This document shows positions 1-52,312 of a stretch of DNA of 64,000 nucleotides, one piece after another. The DNA comes from Candidatus Bathyarchaeota archaeon (GTDB lineage: Archaea; Thermoproteota; Bathyarchaeia; Bathyarchaeales; Bathycorpusculaceae). Numbering within the stretch: position 1 is the stretch's first letter; each line of letters starts with the position of its first letter. The notes below the pieces were generated by a model. It worked only from the letters and a program-made list of their open reading frames with translations. It had not been told where the DNA came from and did not search any database. Where the stretch lies: NCBI GenBank assembly GCA_963828195.1, contig CAWHDT010000007.1, positions 64,001 to 128,000 on the forward strand, read 5' to 3'. The translations under genes were made by a program, and so were the position numbers.

Positions 1-216
1 TACGATACACTGGGCCTAGCAATCGGCGCCGGATTAGCTATTGGCTTATCTTCCTTAGGCGCTGGACTTGGAATCTCCGCCGTTGGCAGCGCCGCCATCA
101 GTGCACTATCTGAGAAGCCTGAAACTTTCTTTAGGAGTTTCTTGATTGTGGCGTTGTCTGAAGCCTTAGCTATTTATGGGTTAATCATGGGAATTCTACT
201 TTGGATAAAAATATAA
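1..216 (+). CDS. atpK: A/V-type ATP synthase subunit K (c), 3' part; truncated by window edge
   Basis: Manual frame-1 translation YDTLGLAIGAGLAIGLSSLGAGLG...SEKPETFFRSFLIVALSEALAIYGLIMGILLWIKI*: proteolipid hairpin with catalytic Glu. Confidence 0.9.
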   Translation, partial: YDTLGLAIGAGLAIGLSSLGAGLGISAVGSAAISALSEKPETFFRSFLIVALSEALAIYGLIMGILLWIKI

Positions 217-440
217 AAAGCAAGGGCGCTTTTGGGCATGCGTGCTGTATTCGTTTTTTCTTGAACAAGAAAGATAAGTAGCTATACTGCTGACCTTGAG
301 AATTTCTACATAGTCCTAATTAATTTCTTTCCGGTTTTATTTCTCTGGAACTAAACTTAGGAAAATAAAATTGGTGAAAAAACCGCAATCTTTTAGACCG
401 ACGCTCGATAACTTAAATATATGAAGTTACTCCTGATGAT

Positions 441-959
441 TTGTCCGTGAGTGATAATGACTTATCAAAAGTAGTTTGGCTTGCTTTTTTGGTTGTCCTC
501 TTAGCTGCCGTCGTGGCGGGTGCGGTGATTGGTTACAATTTGAAGCCTTCAACGACCTCAGTCGCCAGTGTGCCGAAAACCGCGGATATAACTTTGGTAG
601 TTCAAGGTGACGTGAAACTTGGTCCCGATGGTTTACTTCACGACGCTTTTACGCCATGCAACTTCACCGTCTACGCAGGACAAGAAGTGAACCTAACAAT
701 TATAAACTATGATAACGGAGAACATAGCTTTACTAGCCCAAGCTTGGGAGTGAACTTTGCGGTACCGCCAAGCAATGAAACGGGAGTTCCAACAGTGTCT
801 AATTACCAGTTTAACGAGGCAACAGCTGGCGTTTACCGTTGGTGGTGCACATATCCATGCGATACCGATGCAGGGGACTGGGCAATGATGACCGGCAGCG
901 ATGGGCAACCTGACCAGATTGGATACATGGGCGGATTCGTAACCGTCCTACAAGGATAA
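441..959 (+). CDS. Membrane-anchored cupredoxin-fold protein with atypical ligand loop
   Basis: N-terminal TM helix; EHSFT His; C-terminal GVYRWWCTYPC...AM...GYMGG. Confidence 0.7.
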   Translation: MSVSDNDLSKVVWLAFLVVLLAAVVAGAVIGYNLKPSTTSVASVPKTADITLVVQGDVKLGPDGLLHDAFTPCNFTVYAGQEVNLTIINYDNGEHSFTSPSLGVNFAVPPSNETGVPTVSNYQFNEATAGVYRWWCTYPCDTDAGDWAMMTGSDGQPDQIGYMGGFVTVLQG

Positions 960-1105
960 ACAACTAATAATTCGCAAATGTAGTCGCATCAAAAGGATTA
1001 AAGGATGAACCTTCAAACCTTTTCTTGTCTGAGGAAAAGACACTCTCAACTTATCTTTATGAAAATATGTTTGAAAATGAAAAAAGCCCTAAGATGATCG
1101 ACTAA

Positions 1106-1510
1106 TCATTCTTTCGCGTCTGTTATCATGACTGAGAATTTTATTTGTTTAACTGGCTTGTTGGCTTTTAGTCCGTCAATGAGGCTTTTAAGCCGCTCGG
1201 AGGGTCCTTTTACCGCCATAACCTCAAGGCAGCTTGTTTCATTTAGATGCGAGTGCAGATATGCTGCAATCATGTCTCCGTATTCATGCTGCAGGTGGAA
1301 CAATTCTTCATTTTGCTCTGTCTTCTCATAAAGAACGGTTATGGTGGCTATCACGTTTCCTTTGATTTTGTCTAATTCGTTATATTCTGTAATGTAGTTT
1401 CTGACAGCTTGCCTGATCACTTCGGATCTGGTCGCAGAGTGCTGTTCACCTAAAACACCATCCAACTCTTTGAGCAGTTCCTCAGGCAGTGAAACGCTAA
1501 TTATTTCCAC
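1106..1510 (-). CDS. nikR: NikR-family ribbon-helix-helix metal-responsive regulator
   Basis: IISVSLPEELL..LD..RSEVIRQAVR RHH domain; LQHEY, HSH and CLEV match the NikR His/His/His/Cys site. Confidence 0.85.
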   Translation of the reverse strand: MEIISVSLPEELLKELDGVLGEQHSATRSEVIRQAVRNYITEYNELDKIKGNVIATITVLYEKTEQNEELFHLQHEYGDMIAAYLHSHLNETSCLEVMAVKGPSERLKSLIDGLKANKPVKQIKFSVMITDAKE

Positions 1511-1656
1511 GTAATTCTCCTCAACAGCTTATTGTAACAAGATGTTTAACTAATAAATCGTCTTATGCCACGTTGGCTTATGCACCATTAAGATGAGTGG
1601 TTCTAAATGATTTAGTTTTGATTTTCTTTTGCTCTGTCCAGCCAAAAACTGCGTGG

Positions 1657-1688
1657 AGTTATTAAAAAATGAGTAAAACTTAATAACT
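1657..1688. promoter_or_regulatory. Candidate NikR operator
   Basis: Perfect inverted repeat AGTTATTAA-N14-TTAATAACT between divergent nikR and the ABC operon. Confidence 0.55.
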
Positions 1689-1725
1689 TGGGCTGACTAC
1701 AATGCACATATAGGCAGATTAGGAT

Positions 1726-2721
1726 ATGCGGAAAACAACATCTATAATTATTGCAGTAATCTTGGTGGTGTTAATTGTGGGAGGAGCCTTCACAGGCATA
1801 TATCTCTCAAAACATTCAACCTCTACAAGTTCCACTGGAGTGACTGGCACTACGGGAGTGACCGGCACTGCAAGTTCTAATGGAGTGATAAAGATAGTTG
1901 CCGCTGAAAATTTCTGGGGCAGCTTAGTATCTCAACTTGGAGGAACAAAAGTTAATGTGACGAGCATCGTTTCAGACCCCAATACTGACCCTCACGAATA
2001 CGAAAGCAATGCCGCTGACGCCATAGCAATCGCAAATGCCCAATTCGTAATTGTCAACGGAGCCGGATATGACACTTGGGCTCTTCAGCTGATTTCCGCA
2101 AGCGCTTCTTCAAATCAAGTTGTCTTAAACGTCCAAGAACTCATCAACCAAACAATTGACGCTAATCCCCACTTCTGGTACAGCCCCTACTATGTGAATG
2201 ACACTGTAGCTGAGATGTACAAAATCCTCTGCGCCATCGAACCATCCGCCACCTCATACTTTACACAGCAGTATCAAATATTGAAAGATGGCAACGGCCC
2301 TAATGATATATCGCTTAGCACATACAACGCGCGGATTGACGAGATAGCGCAAGATTTTGCCGGCACAAAGGTAGGATCTACGGAGAGCATCTTTGTGTAT
2401 CTCGCGAACGCCACCGGTCTTGACCTAGTGTCTCCTCCTGCATTCATGGAAGCCGTCGCAGAAGGAAACGATCCCCCAGCGCAGAGCGTCGTACAGTTCG
2501 ATAATCTCATTACGAATGGAACCATCACTATGCTGGTCTACAACGAACAAACTGTGACGCTGCTCACGACGAGCATCAAAGCACTAGCTGCTAAATATGA
2601 CATTCCGATTGTTGGAGTGACAGAGACTATACAGCCGCCGGATGTCTCGTTCCAAACTTGGATGAATGCTGAGTTACTCGCAATTCAAGACACACTTAAC
2701 GCAAATGCCCTTGGTCAGTAA
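1726..2721 (+). CDS. Zn/Mn-type (cluster A-I) metal ABC transporter substrate-binding protein
   Basis: VAAENFWG, DPHEYE, NPHFWY motifs; N-terminal TM anchor with Thr/Gly linker. Confidence 0.9.
   Translation: MRKTTSIIIAVILVVLIVGGAFTGIYLSKHSTSTSSTGVTGTTGVTGTASSNGVIKIVAAENFWGSLVSQLGGTKVNVTSIVSDPNTDPHEYESNAADAIAIANAQFVIVNGAGYDTWALQLISASASSNQVVLNVQELINQTIDANPHFWYSPYYVNDTVAEMYKILCAIEPSATSYFTQQYQILKDGNGPNDISLSTYNARIDEIAQDFAGTKVGSTESIFVYLANATGLDLVSPPAFMEAVAEGNDPPAQSVVQFDNLITNGTITMLVYNEQTVTLLTTSIKALAAKYDIPIVGVTETIQPPDVSFQTWMNAELLAIQDTLNANALGQ
1834..1869 (+). repeat. 18-bp imperfect tandem duplication encoding TGVTGT x2
   Basis: actggagtgactggcact / acgggagtgaccggcact. Confidence 0.7.
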
Positions 2722-2723
2722 AT

Positions 2724-3521
2724 ATGACAGAACAATACGAAATCATAAAGTCCGAGAATCTGGTGGCGGGCTACCCAGGCAACGTAGTTTGGCGAGACGC
2801 CAATTTCGCCATTAACCGTGGCGAGTTTGTTGCTGTTATCGGTCCTAACGGAGCAGGCAAGACAACTATGTTTCGTTTGCTCCTTGGGCTACAAAAACCT
2901 ATCAGCGGCACCCTCAAGATATTCGATGAAGCGCCTAAACGCGGCAATCCGCAGATTGGTTACGTTCCTCAGCGTCATATTTTCGATGGTGAAACGAGTG
3001 TTGAAGCTTTTGAACTTGTGCGGCTGGGAGTCTCCGGTACACGATGGGGTTTAGGCCTGTTCTCCAAAAAAGACCACAAAGCTGCTTTGGACGCGCTGGA
3101 AGGTGTTGACGCGACAGATTTGGCTCATCGTTCCCTCAGCGTGTTGTCGGGCGGGGAACTGCAAAAAATATTTTTAGCCGAGGCACTTGTAAGCAACCCC
3201 TCTATCCTATTGCTTGACGAGCCGCTGTCGAATCTTGACATGCGACGCGAGAGAGAATTACTACAGCTTATACACAAAGTAGTTCAATCGCGCAACGTAA
3301 CTGCACTGCTGATAGCCCACAACATCAACCCTCTTTTACCATACCTCGATAAAGTGGTCTACATAGCTAACGGCAAAGTAGCGACTGGAACACCACAAGA
3401 AGTCCTAACATCGGAATGTCTCTCGGCACTATTCGGAGTACAAGTCGAAGTCCTCAAGGATTCGAGAGGTAACATCGCAATCGTAGGAATTGAAGACTGC
3501 CACGGGTGCCAACCAGAATGA
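2724..3521 (+). CDS. Metal ABC transporter ATP-binding protein (ZnuC-like)
   Basis: GPNGAGKT, LSGGE, LLLDEP, GYVPQR. Confidence 0.92.
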   Translation: MTEQYEIIKSENLVAGYPGNVVWRDANFAINRGEFVAVIGPNGAGKTTMFRLLLGLQKPISGTLKIFDEAPKRGNPQIGYVPQRHIFDGETSVEAFELVRLGVSGTRWGLGLFSKKDHKAALDALEGVDATDLAHRSLSVLSGGELQKIFLAEALVSNPSILLLDEPLSNLDMRRERELLQLIHKVVQSRNVTALLIAHNINPLLPYLDKVVYIANGKVATGTPQEVLTSECLSALFGVQVEVLKDSRGNIAIVGIEDCHGCQPE

Positions 3522-4387
3522 CCTTAACATCATTGTCTACTTTATCTTCAACCTTTAGCTATAATCCAATTATCGATCTGCAACGGATTTTTCAATTTGC
3601 GTTCATGCAGCACGCCTATGAGGCAGGAACAGTCGTCGCAATCGTCGCGGGCATTGTCGGCTATTTCATTGTGATTCGTCGTTCCTCATTCGCAGCGCAT
3701 GCACTCTCCCACGTCGGTTTCACTGGGGGAGCGTTTGCCGTATTAATCGGCATCAGCCCCATTTACGGTCTTCTCATGTTCACAAGTATTGGCGGACTTG
3801 GAATAGCCGCGCTTGGTCGGAAGGCTTCCTCGCGTGACGTCCAGATCGGATCGGTTCTCGCATTCATGCTCGGTCTAGGCGTGTTGTTCCTCAGCCTCTA
3901 TACTGGTTATGCAACCGAGGCGTATTCGATCTTGTTTGGAGAAATATTAGGCGTCAGTTATACCGCTGTTCTTTTGACCCTCTTTGCTGGCGCGATAATT
4001 CTGGCGGTTACCGCGGTGGTATATCGACCACTCTTGTTTTCATCGCTTGATGAAGATGTTGCTGAAGCAAAAGGAATGCCCGTACTTTGGCTCGGCGTAA
4101 TTTTCATGCTTCTGGTAGCAGTTGTAACGTCATTTGCGGTCCAGGTCGTTGGCGTCCTGCTCATTTTCGCATTGATGGTCACGCCAGCCGCAACTGCTCA
4201 ATTGTTGGCAAAACGGCCGCGGCAAGTCATAATTCTTTCGGTAATCATTGCTCTGTTAGCAACTTGGTTTGGGCTTTTCATCGCGTTTTATACACCCTAC
4301 CCCGTTAGCTTTTTCATATGCAGCATAGTGTTTTTCTTTTACTTGTTTGTAAGATTCGTCTATAGAAAAATTAGGCCTTTGGCCTAA
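3518..4387 (+). CDS. Metal ABC transporter permease (ZnuB-like)
   Basis: HALSHVGFTG, ILFGEILG, VVGVLLIFALMVTPAATA; ATG at 3518 overlaps the upstream stop (ATGA). Confidence 0.9.
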   Translation: MTLTSLSTLSSTFSYNPIIDLQRIFQFAFMQHAYEAGTVVAIVAGIVGYFIVIRRSSFAAHALSHVGFTGGAFAVLIGISPIYGLLMFTSIGGLGIAALGRKASSRDVQIGSVLAFMLGLGVLFLSLYTGYATEAYSILFGEILGVSYTAVLLTLFAGAIILAVTAVVYRPLLFSSLDEDVAEAKGMPVLWLGVIFMLLVAVVTSFAVQVVGVLLIFALMVTPAATAQLLAKRPRQVIILSVIIALLATWFGLFIAFYTPYPVSFFICSIVFFFYLFVRFVYRKIRPLA

Positions 4388-4434
4388 TTTTTGAGAAAAA
4401 GCACTTTTTCTAAGAATTCCGTTAAATCAAATGT

Positions 4435-5085
4435 TCACGGGTTAATTACCACGTTGCCCCACATGCCTAGTGTGACGTGACCTGGAACTTGGCAGATGTA
4501 GTAAAAGTCGCCTGATTTGGTTACTTTAAAAATGATTGATGCGGTTTGGTTCATTTCTATGGGGACTGAGCCGCTGTCGATTTGCGCGCCGAACAGTACT
4601 TTGGCGGATGTTTGGTTTGTGGTTGTTAGTGCCCAGTTATGAGGCATGGTTCCAATGTTGATGACTGTCATGTTTACTACGTCGCCGACGTTGAAGGTTA
4701 ATGTCGGACCTGGTGAGGTTATGGTGTTTGAGCTGTTTCCAAATCCGTATAGGGTTAAAGTGTTACTAGCATAGAGAGTTACTGAAACGTTGGGTGGAGG
4801 CAGAGGTGGGGTTGTTCCAACGCCTGTGAACACGGCAGCCGCCAGCAAAACGAGGACTGCTAAGGCAGCGAAGCCTGCAGTTAAGAGTTTTTTGCTGACT
4901 CCAGGGTTTTGCTCATAAAAAATGTAGACAAGCAACGCAAACGCAATAAGTTCGGCGCTCATGAGGAAGCCGAAGACTCTTTGTTGAGATATAAAATCCA
5001 AAAACCATATCGAGATTCCCACAACAATCAGAAAAGTTAAGAGGAAAAATGCAATCAAACGTAGTGGGTCGCTATTGTGTGTCAT
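4435..5085 (-). CDS. Multi-TM membrane protein with C-terminal type-1 blue copper (rusticyanin/sulfocyanin-like) domain
   Basis: Three TM helices, then SPGPTL, MPHNW and YICQVPGHVTLGMWG (His/Cys/His/Met); start 5085 or 5124. Confidence 0.8.
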   Translation of the reverse strand: MTHNSDPLRLIAFFLLTFLIVVGISIWFLDFISQQRVFGFLMSAELIAFALLVYIFYEQNPGVSKKLLTAGFAALAVLVLLAAAVFTGVGTTPPLPPPNVSVTLYASNTLTLYGFGNSSNTITSPGPTLTFNVGDVVNMTVINIGTMPHNWALTTTNQTSAKVLFGAQIDSGSVPIEMNQTASIIFKVTKSGDFYYICQVPGHVTLGMWGNVVINP

Positions 5086-5386
5086 TGTTTTGTCTCTAGA
5101 GAGAGCGGTATTTACTGCAACCATAAACGTTTTCCCCTAACATAAAAAGCATAACAATAAGCACTCTTTAAGAGAAAACAAGAGCTTATTTAATGCTATG
5201 GTCTCAGGTACCAATTGTTTTAGCACTTAAAAATAGTTCTCAACTGCGAGACCGCTCTGAACAGGATATCAGATAGGGCAATTTCGCCAACATATTTCAG
5301 CACATAATATTGGAAGAGGCAGCGCCCCCGCCTTCAAACTGCCAGCGTTGGCGAATTATAAAATTAGCAGGATAAAAAAAGAAAGA

Positions 5387-5974
5387 TTATGATTTAACGA
5401 ATTTTGGTCTGATTTTCTGCCGCACCACGAAAGCTGACAAAGCGGTTATTGCAAGCGCAACGAACATCAATGCCAAGGCTGAAGGAAACTCAGGAATGGT
5501 TGGAGTCGGAGAGGTGCTGGCGGCTGATACTACTACGTTTCCCCACATGCCAAGTGATATGTGGGCTGGTACTGTGCAGACGTAGTAGAAGTTGCCTGTT
5601 TGGGTAGGAGTGACAGTGGCTGATCCTGAACCTCCAGCTGGAATGTAGTTGGTTATGTCAATGCCTGAGTTCCACAAGGGTGAAGTGCTTGCTGCTTTGG
5701 TCGGGACTATTTCGAAGGAATGTTGCATGGTGGAGACGTTGTTTACTGTTATTGTATATGTTGTGCCTTCCACTAGAGTTAATGTTGGTCCAGGCGAGGT
5801 AATTTTGCTTGAGCTTAGACCGTACCCATAGGTGCCTGAGCCTGTTGTCACTGAACCTGCATACAGGGTTATTGAATTTCCAGAAATCTGCGCCTTAGTT
5901 GTCGTCGCCGTCAAAGTAGATAATAAGCCTATTACAAGTATTAGAGTAAACACTAACCAAATTCGGTTTTTCAT
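5387..5974 (-). CDS. Secreted type-1 blue copper protein with PEF-CTERM-like C-terminal anchor
   Basis: Signal peptide; MQHSF and YVCTVPAHISLGMWG; tail PTPTIPEFP + TM helix + basic residues. Confidence 0.8.
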   Translation of the reverse strand: MKNRIWLVFTLILVIGLLSTLTATTTKAQISGNSITLYAGSVTTGSGTYGYGLSSSKITSPGPTLTLVEGTTYTITVNNVSTMQHSFEIVPTKAASTSPLWNSGIDITNYIPAGGSGSATVTPTQTGNFYYVCTVPAHISLGMWGNVVVSAASTSPTPTIPEFPSALALMFVALAITALSAFVVRQKIRPKFVKS

Positions 5975-6138
5975 AATTATCCTCTTTTACTCAGCTAGTT
6001 TAATTCAATTGTTTTAAAAAGATTTGTTGTAGTGCATATACAGTCACAATACCGAAATTATTTGCCTCGACTTGCCTAATAACACTGAATGCTTTCAGCG
6101 GCTCCGGTTTTATCTACACGTTTTCTTGACCGGAACGT

Positions 6139-7005
6139 TTAGATGAGCACGATTTTGTCGATGATTAGCCCCATCATCAAGCAAGTCAAATAGGGCATTG
6201 ATGCAATAAACACTTTAAATCCCTGTGTTTCAGAGGAGGAAAATAGTAATCCGCGGTTTCGGAACAAAAACGTGACGCCCGCCGCCAAAGCAACTGCCGT
6301 ATAGATTATGCCAGTTAAACCGAAAAGTACGAATAGAAACGAGGAAGCAACAGTTAAAACATTCAACCAAAAAACAACCTGCGACGTCTTTACTATGCCA
6401 ATCTTCACTGGAAGCATAGGAATCCCCGCAGCCTTGTATTCCTTCACTTTTTTAATGGCAAGTCCCCAAAGATGACCTGGCGTCCAAAGAAAATCCAGCA
6501 TCGCAACAAGAAAGGGCATTAAACTAAGCGTATTGACGGCGGCTGTCCAACCAGCAAGTCCCGCAAAACAGCCAGCGAAACCGCCTATAACCACATTCCA
6601 GGGGCTGGTGCGCTTTAGCCAAACAGTGTAAATAAATAGGTAAAAGACTGTTCCAAGACCGAGCATCAGGCAAGTCATGGGGTTGAACAAGAAAAAAGAG
6701 AAGGCGAAGCTTGAAGAAATCATTGCCAACCCCAATATCAGTGCTTCATTTGATCTCACTTTTCCGGCAGGAATTGCCCTTTTCGAGGTGCGCGACATTA
6801 ATTTGTCAACGTCTCTATCATAGAAGCTGTTTAAGACACCGCAGCCTCCAGCAGCTAAATAACCTATAACAGCGAACAAGGCAAGTTTAAACCAGGAGAT
6901 AGCAGGAAACACAGCAAGCACAAAGCAAGTGACTCCCACCAGCAAATTTAGTAGTGTCACCTTAGGCTTCGTTAGTTGAAGATATCGGTTTATTTTTTCC
7001 CTCAT
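6139..7005 (-). CDS. cyoE: Protoheme IX farnesyltransferase (heme o synthase)
   Basis: LTKPKV, NSFYDRDVDKLMSRTSKRAIP, YTVWLKR, WTPGHLW, EYKAAGIPMLP. Confidence 0.93.
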   Translation of the reverse strand: MREKINRYLQLTKPKVTLLNLLVGVTCFVLAVFPAISWFKLALFAVIGYLAAGGCGVLNSFYDRDVDKLMSRTSKRAIPAGKVRSNEALILGLAMISSSFAFSFFLFNPMTCLMLGLGTVFYLFIYTVWLKRTSPWNVVIGGFAGCFAGLAGWTAAVNTLSLMPFLVAMLDFLWTPGHLWGLAIKKVKEYKAAGIPMLPVKIGIVKTSQVVFWLNVLTVASSFLFVLFGLTGIIYTAVALAAGVTFLFRNRGLLFSSSETQGFKVFIASMPYLTCLMMGLIIDKIVLI

Positions 7006-7055
7006 AATCAGATTCTCTCAAAATACAAAATATGTTTACATACGTTTTAGAACCG

Positions 7056-7574
7056 TTAAGGAAACGCTGGGCCAGTTACTGAGCTCACTATGACTGCGCC
7101 ATACATTCCGTCCGCTGTATCATTGCCAACGGGGGAGATGTACCAGTAATCAAAAGCCTCATTGTTTGGAGTAAAAACAACCGAGCCTTCTTGTCCCGGC
7201 TGAAGAGGGTTGCTTGCTGAACCAATCACGGCGCCGAATAATACTGTGGCATCTGCAATGGGCATGGTGGTTATTGCGAAGGCGTGCGGCAGCTTTCCTA
7301 CGTTTATTACGGTGAGGTTAACGAGGTCTGATGTGGAGAATCCAATGGTCGGTCCAGGCGAGGTCAGGTTGTCTGCTGCCGCGCCGAATCCAAATTGGCC
7401 GTCGGGCATTTCTCCTTCGTAGAGTACAATATTTGACGGAGTCCTAGTTGAGACGTGGGTTACCAATTTAGGCTGAATATTGAAAATCAGCATAGATATC
7501 GCTCCGAAGAAAAACGCGAGCGCAAGAATCCCTATCAAGATGAGGGGCAGATAAGCTTTGAGTTTGCTTTTCAT
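7056..7574 (-). CDS. Membrane-anchored cupredoxin-like protein lacking the Cys and second His ligands
   Basis: SPGPT, LPHAF and GMYG retained, but ligand loop reads YWYISPVGNDTADGM. Confidence 0.7.
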   Translation of the reverse strand: MKSKLKAYLPLILIGILALAFFFGAISMLIFNIQPKLVTHVSTRTPSNIVLYEGEMPDGQFGFGAAADNLTSPGPTIGFSTSDLVNLTVINVGKLPHAFAITTMPIADATVLFGAVIGSASNPLQPGQEGSVVFTPNNEAFDYWYISPVGNDTADGMYGAVIVSSVTGPAFP

Positions 7575-7587
7575 TTGTTCATCACAT

Positions 7588-7860
7588 TCACATAGACATT
7601 GACATCCAAGCTGCAACAGCTAGAATTATAACGCCTAAAACGGCAGCAATCGGCAAAAGAGCTAAACTTTTGTTTTCATACCGCAGATGCTGAAAGTACA
7701 TTGCTATCGTTACAGCTTTACCCGAAGATATCAGAAGAATAACCCCCGATATGACAGCGAACGTTCCAGGTAGTGACCGCGTCATTACTTCTGTCACGGT
7801 TGCTGCTACAAGTCCAGCCCAAATTCCCACATAAAATTTCATTCCATGCATGTTTTTCAC
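7588..7860 (-). CDS. Heme-copper oxidase subunit IV
   Basis: Three TM helices, KAVTIAMYFQHLRYE motif, position in the cox operon. Confidence 0.85.
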   Translation of the reverse strand: MKNMHGMKFYVGIWAGLVAATVTEVMTRSLPGTFAVISGVILLISSGKAVTIAMYFQHLRYENKSLALLPIAAVLGVIILAVAAWMSMSM

Positions 7861-8634
7861 CTAAATTAAATAGAAGAGTGGAAAGAGAAACATCCAAACG
7901 ATGTCGACAAAGTGCCAATACAAACCGATGTTCTCGACGGCTGAATGGTTAGTCTTAGTGAATCCTCCCTGATAGGTTCTAACGATCAAGTAACTAACCC
8001 CCACCAAACCCCCAACTACGTGAGCCGCGTGCAAACCCGTCAGCACGAAATAAGTTGAGCCTGGTAACCCACTGCTTATGGTGAACCCATGTCGGTAGTA
8101 AGCGGGCCATTCAATTCCCAGTTTTATTGCGAGGAAAGCGACGCCTAAGCCAAATGTGCTGAATAACCCGATTTTTAGTCCCCTTATATTGCCCGCTCTA
8201 ATCGAGACAAGCGCAAATATCATCGCTAAACTACTTGTAAGCAATACAATCGTATTAGTCATTCCAAGCATCACGTTGTGCACTTGAGTTGCCACCGGCC
8301 ATGAACCGCTTGAGAATCGAACAAAGATATAGGCAATTATGAGCGACCCAAAAATCAGAATTTCCGACACGAGAAAAATCCAGACGCCCAGTCTTCGTTT
8401 GTCCAAAAATCCAAGCGGCCACTTCTCCTCGACAGATTCTTTTAGATCAGCAAATTTCCCTTCAACGCTGTCCCTGAACAAAGTGAATACGCCAATAGCC
8501 AAAACCACTGCACCTGCAATTGCCAGTGGAATATAAACCACCAAGCCGAAAAGCAATAATGCAACTCCCGCGGCAACTATCAGCGGTGTAAAGGAAGATT
8601 TTTTCTCTTCAGGGCCATCGTAATTTTCAGTCAA
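7861..8634 (-). CDS. coxC: Heme-copper oxidase subunit III
   Basis: [34 protein letters not shown]. Confidence 0.93.
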
Positions 8635-10313
8635 TTTTTATCCTCCATAGTGTTATTTGGGGAACCATTTTTGTCGGGATAATCAACTGGCTTTTCTGCA
8701 GTTTTACAAGTACCATCTTTACACCAGTACCAGCGGTCCTCCCGCGTTTCTTGAGGCAGATTATCTTCTGCGTGAACGGCGTTGTCAGTGGAGTTAGCTG
8801 TCTGAGTTGCTGTCGAACCATGGTAGTTCTGAGTCCACTCCAGCTCTTGAGCATCCCACGGATTAGCGTTGGGCATCGCAGGTTTTCTCAAGCTTAAAAT
8901 CAAATTCAAAACTGCTAGCGCCGCAGCGGGACCAAATATGTAAGCGCCGAAAGTGGCAATTAAGTTTAGGTTTGCAAAACCTGAAGCAACAGTGTAGGTT
9001 TGTATTCTTCTGGGCATGTCTAAGAGAAAGAAATAGGGGAAATACAGAATGTTGAAGCTTATGAAGGCCACAACGAAAGTTATGACTCCGAATGTTTCGT
9101 TGGGTTTTCTTTTAGTGATTTTCGGCCACCAATAATAGAGGCCAGCCAATAACGCAAAAAGGGTTGTTCCAGCCATCACATAGTGGAAGTGACCTACTAT
9201 CCAGTAAGTTCCGTTAAACGCATAGTCCAAAACTGGGAATGCCTGCAGAACTCCTGTTATTCCGCCCAGAGTTACAGTGAAAATGGCTGCTAAACAGTAC
9301 AGCATCGAGGTGTTCAGTGTAATTTTGCCTTTGTACAGAGTTAGCACTAGGGCAAGAACCAGCCCTTCAAAGGGCACAGAAATAGCCAACGTAGTGAAAG
9401 AGAACGTTTGCAAAACGCTGTAGTTTACGCCAGTTGTGTACATGTGGTGCATCCAGACGCCCATACTTAGAAAAGTCACGGCTGCAAATTCGATGAGGAA
9501 CACGTTTTTTGAGAATATGGGTTTCTTTGCGAACGTTTGGAAGACTTCGGCGATTACTCCTAATGCTGGGAAGACGACTATGTACACTTCAGGGTGCCCG
9601 AAAAACCAGAAAAGCTCATCCCACAAGATGCCGCCGCCTTGGGTTGAACTGAAGAACACTGTACCAAGAAACCGATCGCTCGAAAGAAGTAAGAGTCCTG
9701 CTGCTAAAGGCGGGAACGCGAAGAGCGCCAGCGCCATCGTGAAGACGATTGACCATGTGAACAGCGGCAACCGCCTCCAAGTTACTCCTTTGGCTCGTTT
9801 TATGGCGATGGTGGTGAGAAAGTTAATTGAGCTCATAGTTATGGAAAGAGCCAGAAGCAAGATTCCAAGCACCGCCAAAGTCATTCCTGGTTGAGGCGTG
9901 AACTCTATGGTGTTCAGAGGCGCGTAGAGCGTCCAGCCAGTGTTTGGTCCGCCGCCTGGCAGAAAAACGGTGCTTACCATCATTATGCCGCTGAAAAGGT
10001 AAGTCCAGTAGCTTGTCGCATTCATGCGCGGGAACGCGAGATCCTTTGCACCTATTTGAAGTGGCACAATATAATTTGCAATTCCGGCGCCGAGAGGTGT
10101 GAGGACCCAAAGTATCATTAATAGGCCATGCAAGGTAACGGTTTGCTCGTAAGTGGAGGGCTGGAGAAAATTGTTCATTGGAACGGCAAGCTGGGTTCTC
10201 ATCATTTCTCCAAACATGCCTGCTATAGCCATGAAGAATATGGCTGTTACAATGTATAGAATGCCTATCTGCTTATGGTTAGTTGTGGTTAACCATTCTT
10301 TGATTGAAAAAAC
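8631..10313 (-). CDS. coxA: Heme-copper oxygen reductase subunit I, A1 type; start uncertain (about 10304-10313)
   Basis: Six His ligands (LHG, GHPEVY, WMHHM, GHFHY); [11 protein letters not shown]; frame stays open upstream of ATG 10232 through conserved [14 protein letters not shown]. Confidence 0.95.
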
Positions 10314-10320
10314 CGCCCTT

Positions 10321-10995
10321 TTAGCCTCCTGAATTTGATGCGCTTATAGCCAATTGGGTGGCAAGCCACTGATTATATTCGGTTTGATTAACAACAAGCA
10401 TTGTTGCATCCATGAAAGTGTGTCCGACGCCGCAAAGTTCTTTGCACTCGATGTTGTACGTGCAAACTTGGTTTCCAGTTACCGCTGGCGTTGTTATCCA
10501 TAAAATGTTGTATCTGCCAGGTATCGCCTCTATGCTTACCTTGAACTCTTCCAGGTAAAAGTTATGCATAACGTCTGCGCTTGTAACGTTAAACATTACA
10601 GGGGTGTTTCCAGGCAAAGTCATGTTATCTTGGGTTATAACGCCCTCTGGATACCCAAAATTGAAACCCCATTGAAAGCAAGTTACGTCAATTACCAAAC
10701 TTTTGGAGACTCCAGCTGGCTCAAAGCGTGGATTAGGAGTAAGGCTGTAGGATGCCGCGACCAAACTGACCAATATTATAATGGAGATTGAGGCAAAAAT
10801 CAAGCTCTCTCTGGGGCGGCTTTTTTTCAAGCTGAAGTCTGGAATAGATTTGGCTTGCCCTTTTCGTTCGCGGTATTTTACTATAAAAAAAATCATTGCG
10901 CCTATAACAATCGCCAACGCAATTAACGCTGTGGTAGCGGCTAAATCGAAGAAATGATTCCAATCTGAAGCCGAAACTGGTATTGGTTGTGACAT
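10321..10995 (-). CDS. coxB: Heme-copper oxidase subunit II with CuA site
   Basis: Two TM helices, FQWGF, DVMHNF, CKELCGVGHTFM; no fused cytochrome c. Confidence 0.95.
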   Translation of the reverse strand: MSQPIPVSASDWNHFFDLAATTALIALAIVIGAMIFFIVKYRERKGQAKSIPDFSLKKSRPRESLIFASISIIILVSLVAASYSLTPNPRFEPAGVSKSLVIDVTCFQWGFNFGYPEGVITQDNMTLPGNTPVMFNVTSADVMHNFYLEEFKVSIEAIPGRYNILWITTPAVTGNQVCTYNIECKELCGVGHTFMDATMLVVNQTEYNQWLATQLAISASNSGG

Positions 10996-11302
10996 ACGAA
11001 ACTCCTAATTTGGAAGTCAAAAATCAAAGTAAAGCCAGGATTGACGTGGAACCCATAAGCTTATTGAAAAGCTACTAAGTTACCGCATGTACCCAGTTTA
11101 CAAGTACTAATCAGAAAAGTTTGGGGTTTAAAGCTGTGTGGCTAGCTTAGTACAGTCACAAGTTATGACTTGCTACTTTGGTTATTGTTACCACTCGGCA
11201 GTCTACATGCCAAGCGTAGAGCTAAAAAGCTTGTAAGGATAGAGTTTCAAAACTCTTTTATGATGACGCCCTCTTCCGTGGCGTTCGGCTGTTGAACTCG
11301 TA

Positions 11303-12229
11303 TTATTTTATTGACCTGTTACATCCGGGGCAAAAGACGGTATCCTTCTCAATTGGAGAGTTGCAGTGCTTGCACATGGATTTTGAAAAATGCGTTAGCC
11401 CCGAAGGCGAGGTTCCGTGAGCTTCTGCTTCTTTTCTTGCTTTGCGAGCCCCATCGATTCTTCCCGCAAATAACGTTGCTGTTTCAAACACAAAAACAAA
11501 CGGCGCAAGCATGATTAAGCCAGTGATAGGGGTTGGGTCTGGGCCAAAAATCCAGATTAACATCAAGATTGCCACGTAGATGATAATTTTGTTTCTGCCT
11601 CTCAAAAACTTCATTGGAAAAACTCCCACATGAACCAGCATAACAATAAAGACGGGGATGGTGTAGAAAACGCCGCAAATTATGAACAGGGTAAAAATCC
11701 AGTTGTAGAAATCTTTGATGAAAAACAGTGGCATTGATCCGCCTTGCAATGTAAAATACATCAATATTCTGAATGAAATTGGAACTACCAGGAAATATGC
11801 CATAGTTGCCCCTAATGACAGGGTGCCAATGAACGCTCCTAAGTAGTATCCGAGAACTTTCTTTTCGTTAGCATAAAGTGCAGGTTTAACGAAAGCAATG
11901 ATTTCATAGAATATTACTGGGGAAGCCAACAGCAATCCAATAATAATTGACAAGTACGCCATAACAAACACGGTGTCAGCCATACCGCCAGCAATCAGCG
12001 TCGCGTGGCTAGGAAGAAAAACCGCCTTAATCCTAAGCATAACAAGCGATAGAAGCGGCTGATAATCTCCAAATGGGCTAGTTATCCCAGCTATGCTGGT
12101 CGGCAACCAACCGATAGAGATTGTAACTACAAGAGTAATTAACACTACTTTGCCGCGGCGCACCAGCTCATCGACATGCTCCCAGAAACTTAAAGCCCAA
12201 CCCTTAATTGACGCAGATTCAGTACTCAT
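11303..12229 (-). CDS. tatC: Twin-arginine translocase TatC with C-terminal zinc ribbon
   Basis: SFWEHVDEL, FVKPALY..EK, GPDP; tail CKHC...FCPGC. Confidence 0.88.
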   Translation of the reverse strand: MSTESASIKGWALSFWEHVDELVRRGKVVLITLVVTISIGWLPTSIAGITSPFGDYQPLLSLVMLRIKAVFLPSHATLIAGGMADTVFVMAYLSIIIGLLLASPVIFYEIIAFVKPALYANEKKVLGYYLGAFIGTLSLGATMAYFLVVPISFRILMYFTLQGGSMPLFFIKDFYNWIFTLFIICGVFYTIPVFIVMLVHVGVFPMKFLRGRNKIIIYVAILMLIWIFGPDPTPITGLIMLAPFVFVFETATLFAGRIDGARKARKEAEAHGTSPSGLTHFSKSMCKHCNSPIEKDTVFCPGCNRSIK

Positions 12230-12411
12230 AGTTATTCAAACCTTGAAACAAGTAGAGAGCGACGCGCCATCGCTTGTAGCAACCTTCGCGGTGACAAACT
12301 ATATGTTAATTAACGAACCATAAAACAAAAAGTGGGAGCCGAGCTTAACCGCTCCTTGAAAATTTATTGTTTCATCTGCCTTTTTACCCGAAAAAGAAAA
12401 CAACGAAGCGT

Positions 12412-12750
12412 TTATGCTGCGCTTAACAGTTTAACTTTCACGGATATGTCGTTGGATATTTCTTCTCTGGTTTTGCCGTCGGTTGAAATTCCAAGTCTCT
12501 GCGCAGTTTCAAGCAATATTTCATCTTTAGTCTTTATTGTTGTTGCAAGTTTAGGCGCAGCGGCGGCTCCAACTGTGGCTGTTGCTGCTGACCCTGTGCT
12601 AGCTGCATCCATGAATTCTTTCTGTGCATTCGCAAATTCACCTTTAGCCCTGCCTAATGCTCGGGCAAACTCTGGAATCTTTGCTGGACCCCACATTATA
12701 ATCACAATGGCAACAATACCGACGATAATCAGTTCCCATCCATCAAGCAT
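12412..12750 (-). CDS. tatA: Twin-arginine translocase TatA/E
   Basis: GWELII...WGPAKIPEFARALGRAKGEF. Confidence 0.9.
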   Translation of the reverse strand: MLDGWELIIVGIVAIVIIMWGPAKIPEFARALGRAKGEFANAQKEFMDAASTGSAATATVGAAAAPKLATTIKTKDEILLETAQRLGISTDGKTREEISNDISVKVKLLSAA

Positions 12751-12872
12751 TCTAAAAAATCTCCTTTCTTCTTATTGTAATTAAACCTCTAGAAATAAAG
12801 TTCATAAATACATTTGTTGGTGTGAGTTAACAACCACAATCGATTGCTAGGCTGGCTATTTAAGCAAGATTT

Positions 12873-13466
12873 TCAGGTTGACAGAAGAAATAATCCAATT
12901 TCTGCAAAAAGGTTTGGCAGCAATCTGACCGCGCGGTTTTTTCTTACAAATGCCGAAGCTTCAATACAGATGTTATTTTTTCGGCAATACTCTTTGAAGT
13001 CGGCGATGCTTAAGAAATGCAGGTTTGGCGTGTCATACCATTCGTAAGGCAACGCTTTGGTGACTGGGACTCTTCCTTTGAAGAATATTTGGAGCCTGGC
13101 TGGGGCTTGCACGAAGTTTGGGAAGCTGACAATGACCTTTTTTCCCACGCGCCGAGCCTCTTTCAGGGCGAAATCTGGTTTTTTCACTTGCTGCAGTGTC
13201 TGGTTTAATATGACGTAGTCGAATGAGTTGTCTGCGTATTCGGAGAGGCCTGTATCTATGTCTTGTTGAAAAACGCTTAATCCTTGAGCTATACATCGAT
13301 GAATGGCGATTTCGCTTAGTTCTATGCCCTGAGCGTGCACATGCTTTTCTTTTATGAGAAGAGCTAAAAGTTCTCCGTCGCCGCATCCAAGATCAAGCAC
13401 GGAAGAGCTGCCGCTAACCCATTTTAGGATGATCTCGTGCTCTGCTTTTCCCGTTGCCTGACTCAC
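12873..13466 (-). CDS. metW: Methionine biosynthesis protein MetW
   Basis: [32 protein letters not shown]; follows metX. Confidence 0.92.
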
Positions 13467-14593
13467 TGCTTGTCACCATAATGTCCGTTTGACGCTGTGT
13501 TGAGGAAATGCTTGATCAGCTGGGTTTCTTGCTCTGTTTCTAAAAGGAATGCGTCGTGACCGTATGTTGAGTTTATGTCGCAATAAGTGGTGTCGACCCC
13601 CGCGAGTTTACAGGCTTTCACGATTTCCAGAGACTGATAGGAGGGATACAGCCAATCTGACTTGAAGGATATTACGAGCACTTTTGCCTTTAATTCTGCA
13701 AAGACGCTGGAGAGGCTTCTGCCATTTTGAAGGTTGAAGTAATCTATGGCTTTGGTAATGTATAGATACGAGTTAGCGTCGAAACGTTTGACAAAGTTGT
13801 CGCCTCGATAATGCAAGTAGCCTTCAACCTCAAACTCGGCGCCGAACTTGAAGGGCTCCTTGTCTTCTTTTAGGCGTCTTCCGAATTTTTCAGCCATTGA
13901 GGCATCACTCATGTATGTTATGTGTCCGATCATCCGCGCCAAAGCTAAGCCCTTCGCCGGAGCCGTGGAGCCATAATAATGCCCATTCATCCAGTCGGGG
14001 TCCGCCATAATCGCTTGGCGACCAACCTCATTGAAAGCTATCTGCTGAGGCGTATGCTTCAACGTTGTTGCGATTGGTATTGCAGACCTTATTCTTTCGG
14101 GATGAGAAACCATCCATTGGAGAACTTGCATACCGCCCATTGAACCGCCTATGACGGAGAGAAGTTTCCCTATGCCTAAATGGTCGATTAGGCGAACTTG
14201 AGCGTTCACCATGTCGCCAATTGAAATTAGGGGAAAATCGGTGCCGTAGGGCGTGCAAGTTTTAGGATTAATAGAGGATGGACCAGTTGAACCCTGGCAC
14301 CCGCCGATGACGTTGGAGCAGATTACGAAATACTTGTTTGTATCCAAGCCTTTGCCTGGACCAATTAAGCTGTCCCACCAGCCGTAGGCTCCAGCGGCGT
14401 GGGCGTCCCCGGTGAGAGCGTGAAGCACAAGAACTGCATTTGATTTTTGCGGGTTAAGTTCGCCATAAGTTTCGTAGGCGAGCGTTATGGGACCGAGTTT
14501 TTCGCCTGATTCAATAGATAGTTCCTCAGGCGGCTTAGCGAATGCAAAGTGCTTTATTTCAGATAATTGAAGCGTTGGGTTAATTTTTGCTAA
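13463..14593 (-). CDS. metX: Homoserine O-acetyltransferase; true start lies upstream of the track ORF (non-canonical, about 14584-14593)
   Basis: HALTGD, GGSMGG, DWLYP, YGHDAFL; the frame continues upstream through [20 protein letters not shown]. Confidence 0.92.
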
Positions 14594-14620
14594 ATTAGGT
14601 GCCCTCCAAAAAAGCGTTGA

Positions 14621-15952
<1,332 letters not shown>

Positions 15953-16039
15953 TCAAAACATCCGATAACGCCGTTATATGCTTTTTTGTAAGTATTATTC
16001 CAAAAAGAATATTAGACAAACAAATCAACTAAATACAAC

Positions 16040-16594
16040 ATGTTTCCCACACTAGAAGACATCGCCAAACGTAGAAGACAATTAGGTCTAAAACAGTCAG
16101 AACTAGCCGAAATGGCAGGCGTAAGCCAATCCTTAATCGCCAAACTGGAAGCAGGAACCATCGATTCATCCTACACAAAAGTCAAAACAATCTTCGACGT
16201 CCTCGAACGGCTAGAAGCCAAAACAAAAATCCAAGAACGAAAAATCGTACCTAACGAGATCATCAGCATACAGAAAGACGAACCACTATCAAAAGTTGTC
16301 AAACTAATGAAAGAGCACGGTTACTCACAGATCCCTGTGTTTAACGGCAAACAGTCTGTCGGAAGCGTTTCGGAAAAAACCATTCTGCGCCAGATTTTGG
16401 CGGGCAAAGATTTAGATCAAATTTCCAACTTGCCAACCGAAGATATAATGGAAGAAGCTTTTCCACAGGTCAGTGAAGATGCGCCGCTTTCGCTGATTTC
16501 TAGTCTTTTGCAGACTTATCAAGCGGTTTTGATGGCGAAAAAAGGATCTGTAGTGGGCATAGTCACCAAAGCCGATTTATTGAGAATGTTATAG
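16040..16594 (+). CDS. XRE-HTH plus CBS-pair transcriptional regulator
   Basis: LGLKQSELAEMAGVSQSLIAKLE; two CBS domains (YSQIPV, GIVTKADLL). Confidence 0.88.
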   Translation: MFPTLEDIAKRRRQLGLKQSELAEMAGVSQSLIAKLEAGTIDSSYTKVKTIFDVLERLEAKTKIQERKIVPNEIISIQKDEPLSKVVKLMKEHGYSQIPVFNGKQSVGSVSEKTILRQILAGKDLDQISNLPTEDIMEEAFPQVSEDAPLSLISSLLQTYQAVLMAKKGSVVGIVTKADLLRML

Positions 16595-16776
16595 TTGATC
16601 CATAAAGGTGCCGCGTCATCAGACCGCCAGTAACTTCGTCTTAAAAGAAAAACTATGATGTTTTTCATCAACTTCTAAGCAATCCCGACTGAACATATTT
16701 ACGTCACTTCTGTTTACTTGATCGTTTTTAAAGCGACAGGACAGAATCAGGCATGATTTCAAATGGGGAATGAAAG

Positions 16777-17358
16777 ATGAATTTAGGCTTTGACATTGAT
16801 GGAGTAATCGCCGATTTCTCACAGGCACTTCTTGAAACGATAAAGAAAAATTACGGTTTAGCCCTAAATAAAACGGACATTTACTGTTTTGACTTAAACG
16901 TTGTTTTGGGGATAACCAAGTCGGAAGGAAAGCAGCTTATAATTGAAGTTTTACAGAAAGATTTGCCGTTAAATACGGGCGCAAAAGAAACGTTAGAACA
17001 GTTAAGCCGAGAAGGCCACAGCATCTATCTTCTAACAAGCAGATACGACGTTCTCCGAGACATAACGCAGTCTTGGCTAAAAGAAAAAGGTGTACCATAC
17101 ACTCAGCTTCATCTTTTAAACGTGGGTGAAAAGTACCTTGCAAAAGTCGAGCCGTTAGATTTAATCGTGGAAGATTCACTTGAAGAAGCATTAGGGTGGA
17201 CCCAAAAAGTCAAAAATGTTCTTGTTTACGATCAACCATGGAACAAAACATTAAACGTTAAAAACCTAACCAAACGAGTTTACAATTGGGACGAAATATA
17301 CGATGAAGTACAACAATTAAAGCGAGAAACCATTAAAAAAAGGTTAAAGGAAAATTAA
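16777..17358 (+). CDS. HAD-superfamily 5'(3')-deoxyribonucleotidase-like protein
   Basis: FDIDGVIAD, LTSR, IVEDS, QPWN. Confidence 0.8.
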   Translation: MNLGFDIDGVIADFSQALLETIKKNYGLALNKTDIYCFDLNVVLGITKSEGKQLIIEVLQKDLPLNTGAKETLEQLSREGHSIYLLTSRYDVLRDITQSWLKEKGVPYTQLHLLNVGEKYLAKVEPLDLIVEDSLEEALGWTQKVKNVLVYDQPWNKTLNVKNLTKRVYNWDEIYDEVQQLKRETIKKRLKEN

Positions 17359-17434
17359 TTAGAAAAAATATTGACAAACAATTTTTGCCATTTAATTTAT
17401 TAAGGTATAATGCTGTTATAATTGCTGAATCAAA

Positions 17435-22000: not shown

Positions 22001-22056
22001 GGCGAATAATTCGTTGGCAAAGCTTGGTCTATGTCAGCTTCATCCATGGAAGTCAT
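19024..22056 (-). CDS. ileS: Isoleucine--tRNA ligase
   Basis: GPP..NG.PHIGH, GWDCQGLPVE, WTTMP, WCISRER.WG, KMSKS. Confidence 0.97.
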   Translation of the reverse strand: MTSMDEADIDQALPTNYSPLQLEKEMREFWVKNQIREKLELVEKDAKGILGYVEGPPTLNGIPHIGHARGRVLKDIRYRWKTMEGYYMPFWAGWDCQGLPVELEVEKLLGVRNKRESIEKYGMERFIEECKKAIMRYHKMWLEADANLGVFINQEKAYWTYKDDYIEREWQILKRAWEQNLLEEGHYVVAYCPGCQTSLSSAEVGYEGSYKEVEDPSLYFKFKVCGSKNEFFLVWTTMPFTIITDTMLAVQPNAEYVKVKVGEETWIMVKQRVEPVMQELDIIKYEVTETVWGKNLEGAAYDYPLKDLIPKQAELETEHPLVHKVIGEDFVDVNTATGVVHLSPGNGEDDFWAAKRRGVPIFAPYDDEVKFTKDAGIFNGVFARDADYLVVEELRNHNAFVKVAKTKHEYPTCWRSHHKLIWLARKEYFLRTDKLNSKVLEAAEKVQYYFEEPKNRFLGFLKEGKPWCISRERIWGTPLPIWACEKCGAKRIVGSKKELLENAQEPIPENFELHKPWVDRITLKCEKCGGNMRREDFVLDTWHNSGASPYARFTDKEVEKFVPTSFLTEGIDQTRGWANSLLLEYVVLTAEPNAPYKSFLFQGLTQDAKGRKMSKSLGNVVETNKLLETNSADLCRFYMTRKCSPIDFMNFDMQELNRRPYQVLSTLYHLSRFFMQNATFDKFNPSECTLAWAFKANKLEPADLWLLSKLQEKIEDYTGKLERCEFNAAVAVLDDFVIETLSRLYVPMIRKELWTDEPETMQRRQTIYALLHHTLKTVTLLFNPITPYLSEALYQKIYRQLEPQLPESVNLACWPTPDPKIRDKPLEDQFEALLKTVSIGYAARQQGKLKRRWPLSKAIVVAPAKTLDALKFLESLLLEQLNVKAVEYAAQVPDYVGGENWVSSQEDDITVLVSGQRDDTLLGEGIMRDLARRVQALRKEMGFMPTDVLESVHIAELDAESMALLETYLEEMAGLVRARKVYLHSSRSEEHDAEWHESELDGKKIYLNIH

Positions 22057-50266: not shown

Positions 50267-50578
50267 ATGGATAATTTTATTCCTGTTTTAGAAGAAAAAG
50301 AGTTGCAAGAAGGTACAATGAAGCTTGTGTCAGTTGAAGGGTGCCCAATTTTACTGGTTAAGCAGTCTGGCCAAATTTTTGCTATCGATAACCGCTGTCC
50401 ACACATGGGCTGTGCTTTTTCAGGCGGGTCCCTTGATGGTTTCGTAATTGTTTGCCCCTGTCACGATTGGCGCTTTGATTTGAAAACAGGTGAGTATGAA
50501 GATGAGCCGTCAATAAAACTAAAATTTTACGAGTGGAAAATTGAGTCTGGCAAAATCTGGATAAAACTCGAAGAATAA
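50267..50578 (+). CDS. Rieske [2Fe-2S] ferredoxin
   Basis: NRCPHMG...VCPCHDWRFDLKTG; no signal peptide. Confidence 0.92.
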   Translation: MDNFIPVLEEKELQEGTMKLVSVEGCPILLVKQSGQIFAIDNRCPHMGCAFSGGSLDGFVIVCPCHDWRFDLKTGEYEDEPSIKLKFYEWKIESGKIWIKLEE

Positions 50579-52232: not shown

Positions 52233-52312
52233 TTTCCCATCAATTTTTCTAATATTGCTTATCAATAATTTTAATAATCAGCGACTGCACACCTTCCCAA
52301 GCAGTGATCACA

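Follow-up and report, generated by a model that had tools for sequence, protein, structure and literature searches.

A heme-copper oxygen reductase operon in a member of the Bathyarchaeia and its relatives

Bathyarchaeia are usually modelled as anaerobes. Reports of oxygen-reducing enzymes are in print for this class: the soil genus Houtuousia, described as lacking the tetrahydromethanopterin (H4MPT) Wood-Ljungdahl pathway and pyruvate:ferredoxin oxidoreductase (PFOR) and as having a glyoxylate cycle, was reported to possess cytochrome c oxidases (Hou et al. 2023, PMC10321748); a 2025 review repeats the Houtuousia report (PMC12694404); and a "potential for oxygen respiration" was reported for a peat Bathyarchaeia metagenome-assembled genome (MAG; SPRUCE 2025, PMC12296737). 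Here we describe an oxidase operon in a 64,000-nucleotide stretch of DNA (the window, C7:64001-128000 of source genome G000, which comprises 2.83 Mb in 9 contigs with a completeness of 96.14% and a contamination of 3.52%), where eight open reading frames (ORFs), all on the minus strand, occupy positions 4435-10995. We confirmed that the operon is real, and its gene content, residues, genomic context and distribution suggest that it probably encodes an A-family heme-copper oxygen reductase that works, or did so until recently, in a bathyarchaeon with a facultatively (micro)aerobic life. An earlier note on this DNA implied a novelty that was overstated, since oxidases in Bathyarchaeia are already reported in two of these papers (PMC10321748, PMC12296737); the locus extends a trait already on record to a second lineage, which has an oxidase clade of its own, and is no new kind of system. 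Our literature search found no paper on such an operon in a Wood-Ljungdahl-bearing Bathyarchaeia genus, although supplementary tables may hold such data.

Comparison with the closest described systems revealed both shared and distinguishing features. As in Houtuousia, the operon is an A-family oxidase in soil-type Bathyarchaeia that is read as a (micro)aerobic adaptation; unlike Houtuousia as described, G000 encodes CdhC of the carbon monoxide dehydrogenase/acetyl-CoA synthase (CODH/ACS) and POR_N proteins, had no match to isocitrate lyase (ICL), and falls outside the Houtuousia type. The nearest named outgroups are the haloarchaeal and Acidilobaceae (Aeropyrum-type) oxidases (43-50% identity), which belong to the same archaeal clade and carry the same PF(E/D)xx motif but are set apart by a long stem of about 1 change per column. 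These organisms are aerobes with heme A synthase (a Haloferax control matched PF02628), whereas none was found in the window's genus. Haloarchaeal oxidases have blue-copper electron donors. The Sulfolobus SoxM and SoxABCD chains with sulfocyanin, and the copper chains of ammonia-oxidizing archaea, likewise run from Rieske/cytochrome b through a cupredoxin to CuA; this likeness is one of architecture only, with scores far below equivalog cut-offs, unfused oxidase genes in the window and neither group in our trees. Cytochrome bo3 of Escherichia coli is also an A-family enzyme (CyoB matches CoxA at 396.8 bits), contains hemes b and o, and needs only heme O synthase. In contrast to cytochrome bo3, which is a quinol oxidase without CuA, the window enzyme retains the complete CuA site, so that its expected electron donor is a protein.

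Gene content and catalytic residues

The eight genes, in order of transcription, are:

10321..10995, minus strand: coxB, subunit II with a CuA site and without a cytochrome c domain (Pfam COX2, 44.7 bits; NCBIfam CoxB TIGR02866, 142 bits, narrowly missing the cut-off of 147.7)
8631..10316, minus strand: coxA, A-family subunit I (Pfam COX1: ATG form, 415.8 bits; open frame, 431.2 bits across profile positions 1-436)
7861..8634, minus strand: coxC, subunit III (Pfam COX3, 94.9 bits), with a 4-base overlap with the coxA stop
7588..7860, minus strand: coxIV, small prokaryotic subunit IV (Pfam COX4_pro, 39.1 bits; caa3_sub_IV, 27.5 bits, under its cut-off)
7056..7616, minus strand: cup1, membrane-anchored cupredoxin-fold protein without Cys/His copper ligands (Pfam Cu-oxidase_3, 35.6 bits)
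6139..7005, minus strand: ctaB/cyoE, heme O synthase (Pfam UbiA, 171 bits; NF003349, 252.5 bits, cut-off 246; TIGR01473, 251.2 bits, cut-off 210.3)
5387..5974, minus strand: cup2, secreted type-1 copper protein (Pfam Copper-bind, 26 bits; SoxE, 21.9 bits), ligand motif YYVCTVPAHISLGMWG
4435..5124, minus strand: cup3, membrane-anchored type-1 copper protein (Pfam Copper-bind, 28.7 bits), ligand motif YYICQVPGHVTLGMWG

All eight frames are open and full length, coxA apart for its start codon, and the Pfam matches of all eight proteins exceed their cut-offs. The first six genes, from coxB to ctaB, are separated by −4 to about 50 bases, and because of this tight packing we regard them as one operon; the order of this six-gene core is kept in the 28 closest loci. 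The genes cup2 and cup3 are placed after gaps of 164 and 262 bases, and the true start of cup1 is likely the ATG at 7574. CtaB belongs to the heme O synthases, scoring above the cut-offs of two NCBIfam equivalog models for this enzyme, and CoxA scored 550.3 bits against the CtaD_CoxA model, under the cut-off of 670.75. An "intact" run of coxB-A-C-IV, one cupredoxin and cyoE, as the earlier note described it, is therefore present in its genes and their order, but coxA lacks a canonical start, cup1 lacks Cys/His copper ligands, and the window has three cupredoxin-fold genes.

The catalytic residues are those of an A-family enzyme with a CuA site. The CoxB translation carries the pattern H..CxExCxxxHxxM with H, C, E, C, H and M all present, giving a complete binuclear CuA site. 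Aligned to solved A-family enzymes, CoxA matched best to subunit I of Bacillus subtilis aa3-600 (QoxB, 415.6 bits), relative to which the six His ligands of the low-spin heme, the high-spin heme and CuB are conserved (TLHG, GHPEVY, HH, HFH). Also conserved are GHPEVY on helix VI, with the cross-link Tyr and the D-channel Glu, and KDLAFPRMN in the loop II-III region, with the D-channel Asp/Asn; the allotment of these motifs to channels follows established knowledge. The CuA site, six His ligands, cross-linking Tyr and D-channel Asp/Asn/Glu that had been listed from the sequence earlier were thus all recovered in the translation and the QoxB alignment.

The K-channel Lys is absent, as the helix VIII motif PTGVK is replaced by PFEGL in the window CoxA. 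This position reads PFEG(L/V/I) in 25 of 25 Bathyarchaeia-type rows, PFEMA in 2 Acidilobaceae, PFDL(M/I) in 32 Halobacteria and PTG(V/I)K in all 17 bacterial rows. Judged from this alignment, the replacement is a clade trait with no sign of lost function, and it is not a defect since oxidases of this kind serve haloarchaea in respiration. Among archaeal A-family oxidases, K channels that vary or are lost have been described (PMC8239418).

The type-1 copper set of His, Cys, His and Met is complete in cup2 and cup3 and incomplete in cup1, and both cup2 and cup3 have SoxE-domain matches. The cup3 protein is 83.5% identical over 176 residues to a cupredoxin encoded beside Rieske/cytochrome b genes on contig C5 of the same genome. 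In cup2 and its orthologs, a C-terminal Pro-Glu-Phe motif is followed by a hydrophobic helix (membrane anchor) and basic residues, an arrangement that resembles the PEF-CTERM archaeosortase sorting signal; the NCBIfam search of cup2 gave no PEF-CTERM match.

Host, distribution and phylogeny

The operon lies on a contig of 334,863 bases, and GC content is even along the window. IleS, encoded at 19024-22056, about 8 kb from the operon, is 82-92% identical to the 120 listed relatives; six of these carry an organism label, in each case Bathyarchaeia or Bathyarchaeota. The 28 closest CoxA loci, from species-representative genomes (55-90% identity), include 24 titled Bathyarchaeota or Bathyarchaeia and one "uncultured archaeon". 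This evidence, from a housekeeping IleS and from CoxA-locus labels, fits a host in the Bathyarchaeia, as had been supposed from the sequence alone.

The remaining three of the 28 loci, all from one MAG catalogue, carry bacterial or nanoarchaeal labels. Together with the estimated genome contamination of 3.52%, these labels are what one might expect if the operon were foreign to the organism, as part of a chimeric contig or a contaminant, or if the organism were a known aerobe such as a member of the Nitrososphaeria. We consider this very improbable in view of the nearby IleS and its Bathyarchaeia-labelled relatives, the length and even GC content of the contig, and the presence of related operons on contigs >1 Mb labelled Bathyarchaeota. 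Gene neighborhoods and kinship argue against it as well (loci compared are labelled L, with L093 and L094 from G000 itself, and genomes G): one relative (L055) has the znuABC flank in common with the window, the oxidase clusters of L024, L027 and L028 adjoin the same metW/metX/sulfhydrylase block, and 17 holders of an A-type oxidase belong to the same genus by GTDB-based kinship. Moreover, in three genomes of the genus that lack the oxidase, synteny with the window ends exactly at metW (12873-13466), and the far side is different in each. The operon therefore lies in a variable region beside a conserved block and is native to the organism, and a chimeric contig is unlikely.

The three loci with discordant labels (L015, L025 and L038) are titled Limnocylindrales, Nanoarchaeia and Sulfotelmatobacter MAGs and have a Bathyarchaeia-type operon nested inside the Bathyarchaeia clade. 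They are probably mis-binned contigs, because they carry the same archaeal operon, with tatA/tatC-like neighbors beside it in L015 and L038.

The earlier note had proposed read coverage as a check of contig integrity. Assembly of reads against window positions 1-16000 gave short low-depth contigs from 4 runs in 4 studies, many of them identical to the window. No listed read-derived piece spans an operon-flank junction with 31 letters on each side; the nearest (X1 record 3, 4050-4458) reaches 24 letters into cup3, and the best-matching run may be that of the source sample. Among the sequencing runs listed as containing the stretch, none was an RNA run, a result that carries no information on expression. 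Because these pieces leave the junctions unspanned, integrity was judged by synteny, which gave no sign of a chimera.

Within the genus, which holds more than 81 species, a COX1 match was found in 27 of 81 genomes (17 of the 47 of high quality). An A-type oxidase is present in 17 and a second type (about 260-272 bits) in 9, one genome having both, and two genomes (G023 and G094) have broken oxidase genes only. None of 16 genomes from 11 other families of the same order had a COX1 match. In a sample of the class, 39 of 251 genomes matched, and these were concentrated in family f35 of another order (29 of 32). Genomes of f35 genus g70 lack CdhC (0 of 10) and mostly have ICL (8 of 10); from the fit of oxidase, CdhC and ICL to the published description, we infer that f35/g70 is Houtuousia.

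Phylogenetic analysis of subunit I, another check that had been proposed, placed the enzyme in a Bathyarchaeia clade of its own that is separate from the f35 clade. In these quick maximum-likelihood trees, which have SH-aLRT support only, with 24 haloarchaeal rows dropped for size and 5 of 80 loci lacking a frame >430 residues, 22-26 rows of window-type enzymes group together as one clade with a support of 100. The f35 enzymes, in which CoxA and CoxC are fused, form a separate clade (support 100), and both clades fall within an archaeal group with Acidilobaceae and Halobacteria (SH-aLRT 100), Nitrososphaeria, Sulfolobales and Thermoplasmatota lying outside the tree sampling. G000 has a paralogous coxB-A-C-IV-cup1-ctaB operon (C9:48829-56262; L094), and its CoxA and the window copy belong to different subclades of the window-type clade.

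The second COX1 type in the genus, as seen in locus L008, is a C-family (cbb3-like) oxidase. In this locus (1405-4253), from the one-contig genome G014, a CcoN-like ORF (TIGR00780, 270.8 bits, below cut-off) precedes a fused FixO/CcoO with two cytochrome c domains, and a CcmF_C-like ORF lies upstream. Eight further genomes (G001, G015, G022, G053, G054, G070, G083 and G089) had similar scores (about 260-272 bits) and, judged by score, the families having been tested in L008 only, probably carry a cbb3-type oxidase. Oxidases of the cbb3 type are commonly described as confined to bacteria. Within the portions of the literature available to our search, we found no cbb3 oxidase attributed to Bathyarchaeia.

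Heme supply and electron route

Analysis of the G000 genome suggested that it can supply the oxidase with heme b and heme o. G000 has hemA/B/L/D, sirC and a cobalamin cluster, as well as an ahb cluster recognized by neighborhood, in which AhbA (144.9 bits, cut-off 140) and AhbB (170.6 bits, cut-off 125) exceed their cut-offs and AhbC-like and AhbD-like proteins score under theirs; the AhbD equivalog search gave many radical SAM/SPASM matches below cut-off in every genome of the genus. These genes, together with CtaB, would allow synthesis of both hemes, so the earlier question of whether the genome can make heme is answered favorably at the level of gene content. The lack of a heme A synthase in the window, which the earlier note had recorded, extends to G000 as a whole, where PF02628 had no match, and to the genus, where 0 of 81 genomes exceeded the cut-off, in searches in which a Haloferax control matched and a Sulfolobus control was missed. 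Because ahbABCD and a heme O synthase are encoded and no heme A synthase was found, the oxidase hemes are probably b and o; with the caveat of the Sulfolobus control, the genome lacks what would make the enzyme an aa3 type.

A search for a Rieske/cytochrome b complex, as had been advised, identified a module on contig C5 (853327-855800), where a cytochrome b gene (503 residues, 96 bits) adjoins a Rieske gene, side by side with the module's own cupredoxin, a MenA-like prenyltransferase and a methyltransferase. The best NCBIfam match of this cytochrome b is SoxC (198.9 bits, far below the equivalog cut-off), and the Rieske protein is weakly SoxL2-like. The Rieske ORF (854847-855800; L093 8847-9800) has a twin-arginine translocation (TAT) signal. 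Ahead of this signal, at the N-terminus of the protein, stands a cytochrome b5-like heme-binding domain (26.7 bits); such a fusion is unusual among Rieske proteins of the complex III type. Cytochrome b was found in 10 genomes of the genus, seven of which also hold an A-type oxidase. G000 also has a NuoD-like gene and cytochrome bd subunit I.

We propose that, if the operon is expressed, the NuoD-type complex and other dehydrogenases would reduce a menaquinone-type quinone and the C5 Rieske/cytochrome b module would oxidize the quinol. Membrane-anchored blue-copper proteins (cup2, cup3 and the C5 paralog), replacing cytochrome c, would then carry electrons to the CuA site of CoxB, from which they would pass through the low-spin heme to the heme-CuB center of CoxA, where O2 would be reduced. 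Protons would be taken up via the conserved D-channel, potentially coupled to proton pumping. The earlier reading of the operon as microaerobic respiration or oxygen scavenging thus has gene-level support from the host, the predicted b/o hemes and the Rieske/cytochrome b module.

Start codon, decay and use of the oxidase

Several observations weigh against a working respiratory oxidase. The coxA frame is open from 10343 and has no ATG, GTG or TTG upstream of the conserved N-terminus, and the GCG found there is one base off GUG and two off AUG. In cup1, YISPVGND stands where most relatives have YICPVPGH, replacing Cys by Ser and the second His by Asp/Asn. The C9 copy of coxA is split by a frameshift outside any homopolymer, and the only DUF420 (CtaM-like) gene of G000, at the C9 operon, is truncated and frameshifted; DUF420 adjoins most related operons. 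Because PF02628 missed the Sulfolobus control, a compact archaeal heme A synthase could have escaped the Pfam CtaA model. Of the 17 genomes of the genus with an A-type oxidase, only 7 have cytochrome b, indicating that a Rieske/cytochrome b route is not general. The search for quinone synthesis called for by the earlier note was successful in part, finding the MenA-like prenyltransferase, but the MqnA/D families had no match in G000 and the score of the MenA-like protein falls short of most equivalog cut-offs, so that quinone synthesis is only predicted. Finally, cytochrome bd alone could serve O2 removal, and the O2-sensitive CODH/ACS and three POR_N genes point to a mainly anaerobic life.

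Comparison of related loci revealed that the coxA start of the window is part of a wider pattern. The first ATG, at 10232, falls well within the conserved coding region, 28 codons downstream of the GCG at 10316-10314, which occupies the position where relatives start; an ATC is found at 10304-10302. The start position is 8 bases past a conserved AGGAGG within the end of coxB and 4 bases past the coxB stop. Across the 28 related loci, the codon at this position is ATG (8), TTG (8), ATC (5), ACG (4), GTG (1), GCG (1) or ATA (1), and is thus canonical at the 8-base spacing in 17 loci and non-canonical in 11 and the window; one of the ATC loci additionally has an ATG two codons upstream, and the GCG-GTT state of the window recurs in another species (L033). 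Since ACG, ATC, GCG or ATA is found in 11 of 28 loci, the non-canonical start is recurrent and not a one-off lesion.

The N-terminal 36 codons straddling the first ATG differ from those of seven relatives by 6-15 synonymous and 2-6 non-synonymous changes. Because these differences are mostly synonymous, the codon comparison indicates that the region is under purifying selection and is translated, including the part before the first ATG. Public gene calls shorten CoxA to 533 residues, compared to about 562-570 for the open frame. We propose that translation of coxA most likely depends on coupling to coxB via the AGGAGG Shine-Dalgarno sequence inside the coxB end and begins 4 bases beyond the coxB stop, at a non-canonical codon. 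A CoxB-CoxA fusion produced by +1 frameshifting at the coxB stop, considered in view of the AGGAGG just before it, was rejected; GGC-to-GCU re-pairing is poor, and a normal start is found at this spacing in 17 of the 28 relatives.

These data also bear on whether the operon is decaying, with active enzyme no longer made, which we consider improbable. The non-canonical coxA start and the loss of copper ligands in cup1 would be consistent with decay, as would the C9 operon, which looks decayed: besides the coxA frameshift and truncated DUF420 gene, its neighbor gene is a fragmented copy of C5:714033-716687. Broken oxidase genes are also found in G023 and G094, two other genomes of the genus. In contrast, none of the eight window ORFs is interrupted or shortened, sequence change before the first ATG follows the pattern of a coding region, and the start codon has the parallels described above in L033 and in 11 of the 28 loci. 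The ligand-less cup1 likewise appears to be maintained. In an alignment of 28 cup1 rows, 15 have the full ligand set, 3 have Cys without His, 2 are truncated and 8 lack both; these eight are L038 and all seven members of the window's oxidase subclade, the window included, in which the C-terminal tail of the protein is conserved. This conservation points to a retained non-copper role for cup1.

A working oxidase could also serve mainly to scavenge O2, with little energy conservation, shielding O2-sensitive enzymes (CODH/ACS, PFOR-type and HGD-D/DCCP-like proteins) during O2 pulses in soil or peat. In G000, CdhC is encoded (214.9 bits), as in 25 of 31 genomes of the genus, along with the three POR_N proteins and an HGD-D (DCCP-like) protein at 52304-53599 (plus strand, 417.3 bits), which agrees with the O2-sensitive DCCP reported earlier on this contig. 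The patchy distribution of the oxidase, in 27 of 81 genomes, is as expected of an accessory trait, no glyoxylate-cycle ICL match was found in G000, and cytochrome bd is present too. Nevertheless, detoxification would not call for an A-family enzyme that has its D-channel intact, includes subunits III and IV and is served by a Rieske/cytochrome b and cupredoxin chain of its own, and cytochrome bd is the usual O2 scavenger. We therefore regard scavenging as the main role as rather unlikely and favor (micro)aerobic respiration, noting that the two are not mutually exclusive.

Taken at the level of the genus, these results allow a tentative proposal, which we put forward as possible rather than probable. 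A large soil/peat genus of more than 81 species would keep CODH/ACS while about one-third of its species carry an optional respiratory kit, independent in origin of that of the known aerobic family, in one of two forms: a heme A-free A-type oxidase fed by copper carriers, often with near-cognate subunit I starts (ACG, ATC, GCG, ATA), or a cbb3-type oxidase with c-type cytochromes. If so, oxygen respiration would have entered Bathyarchaeia at least twice and would coexist with acetogen-type metabolism. The second lineage would be distinguished by its retained anaerobic core, heme b/o probably in place of heme A, copper-only electron carriers and an unusual coxA start. O2-reducing capacity in a large Wood-Ljungdahl-bearing soil/peat genus would also shift where carbon turnover is placed along redox gradients, such as those that follow changes in the peat water table.

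The flanks of most related operons contain further genes of potential relevance, with families tested in L027 and similar ORF sizes seen in many of L012-L039. Upstream in L027 (6641-8896) are a thermosome gene and a DUF420 (CtaM-like) gene with four transmembrane segments (30.7 bits, cut-off 30.5). Downstream (14079-17379) is a trio of genes, for an unknown protein (about 190 residues), a GMC oxidoreductase (about 605 residues) and a Gluconate_2-dh3 subunit with a TAT signal (about 290 residues); no GMC oxidoreductase/Gluconate_2-dh3 trio was found in G000. The composition of this trio hints at an exported flavoprotein dehydrogenase that may feed the oxidase.

Elsewhere in the window, ORFs at 48059-50161 (plus strand, 700 residues) and 24605-25969 (minus strand, 454 residues) had no Pfam match at E <= 1e-5. 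The window also encodes a multi-PAS histidine kinase (31742-34438, minus strand) and a small stand-alone Rieske ferredoxin (50267-50578, plus strand).

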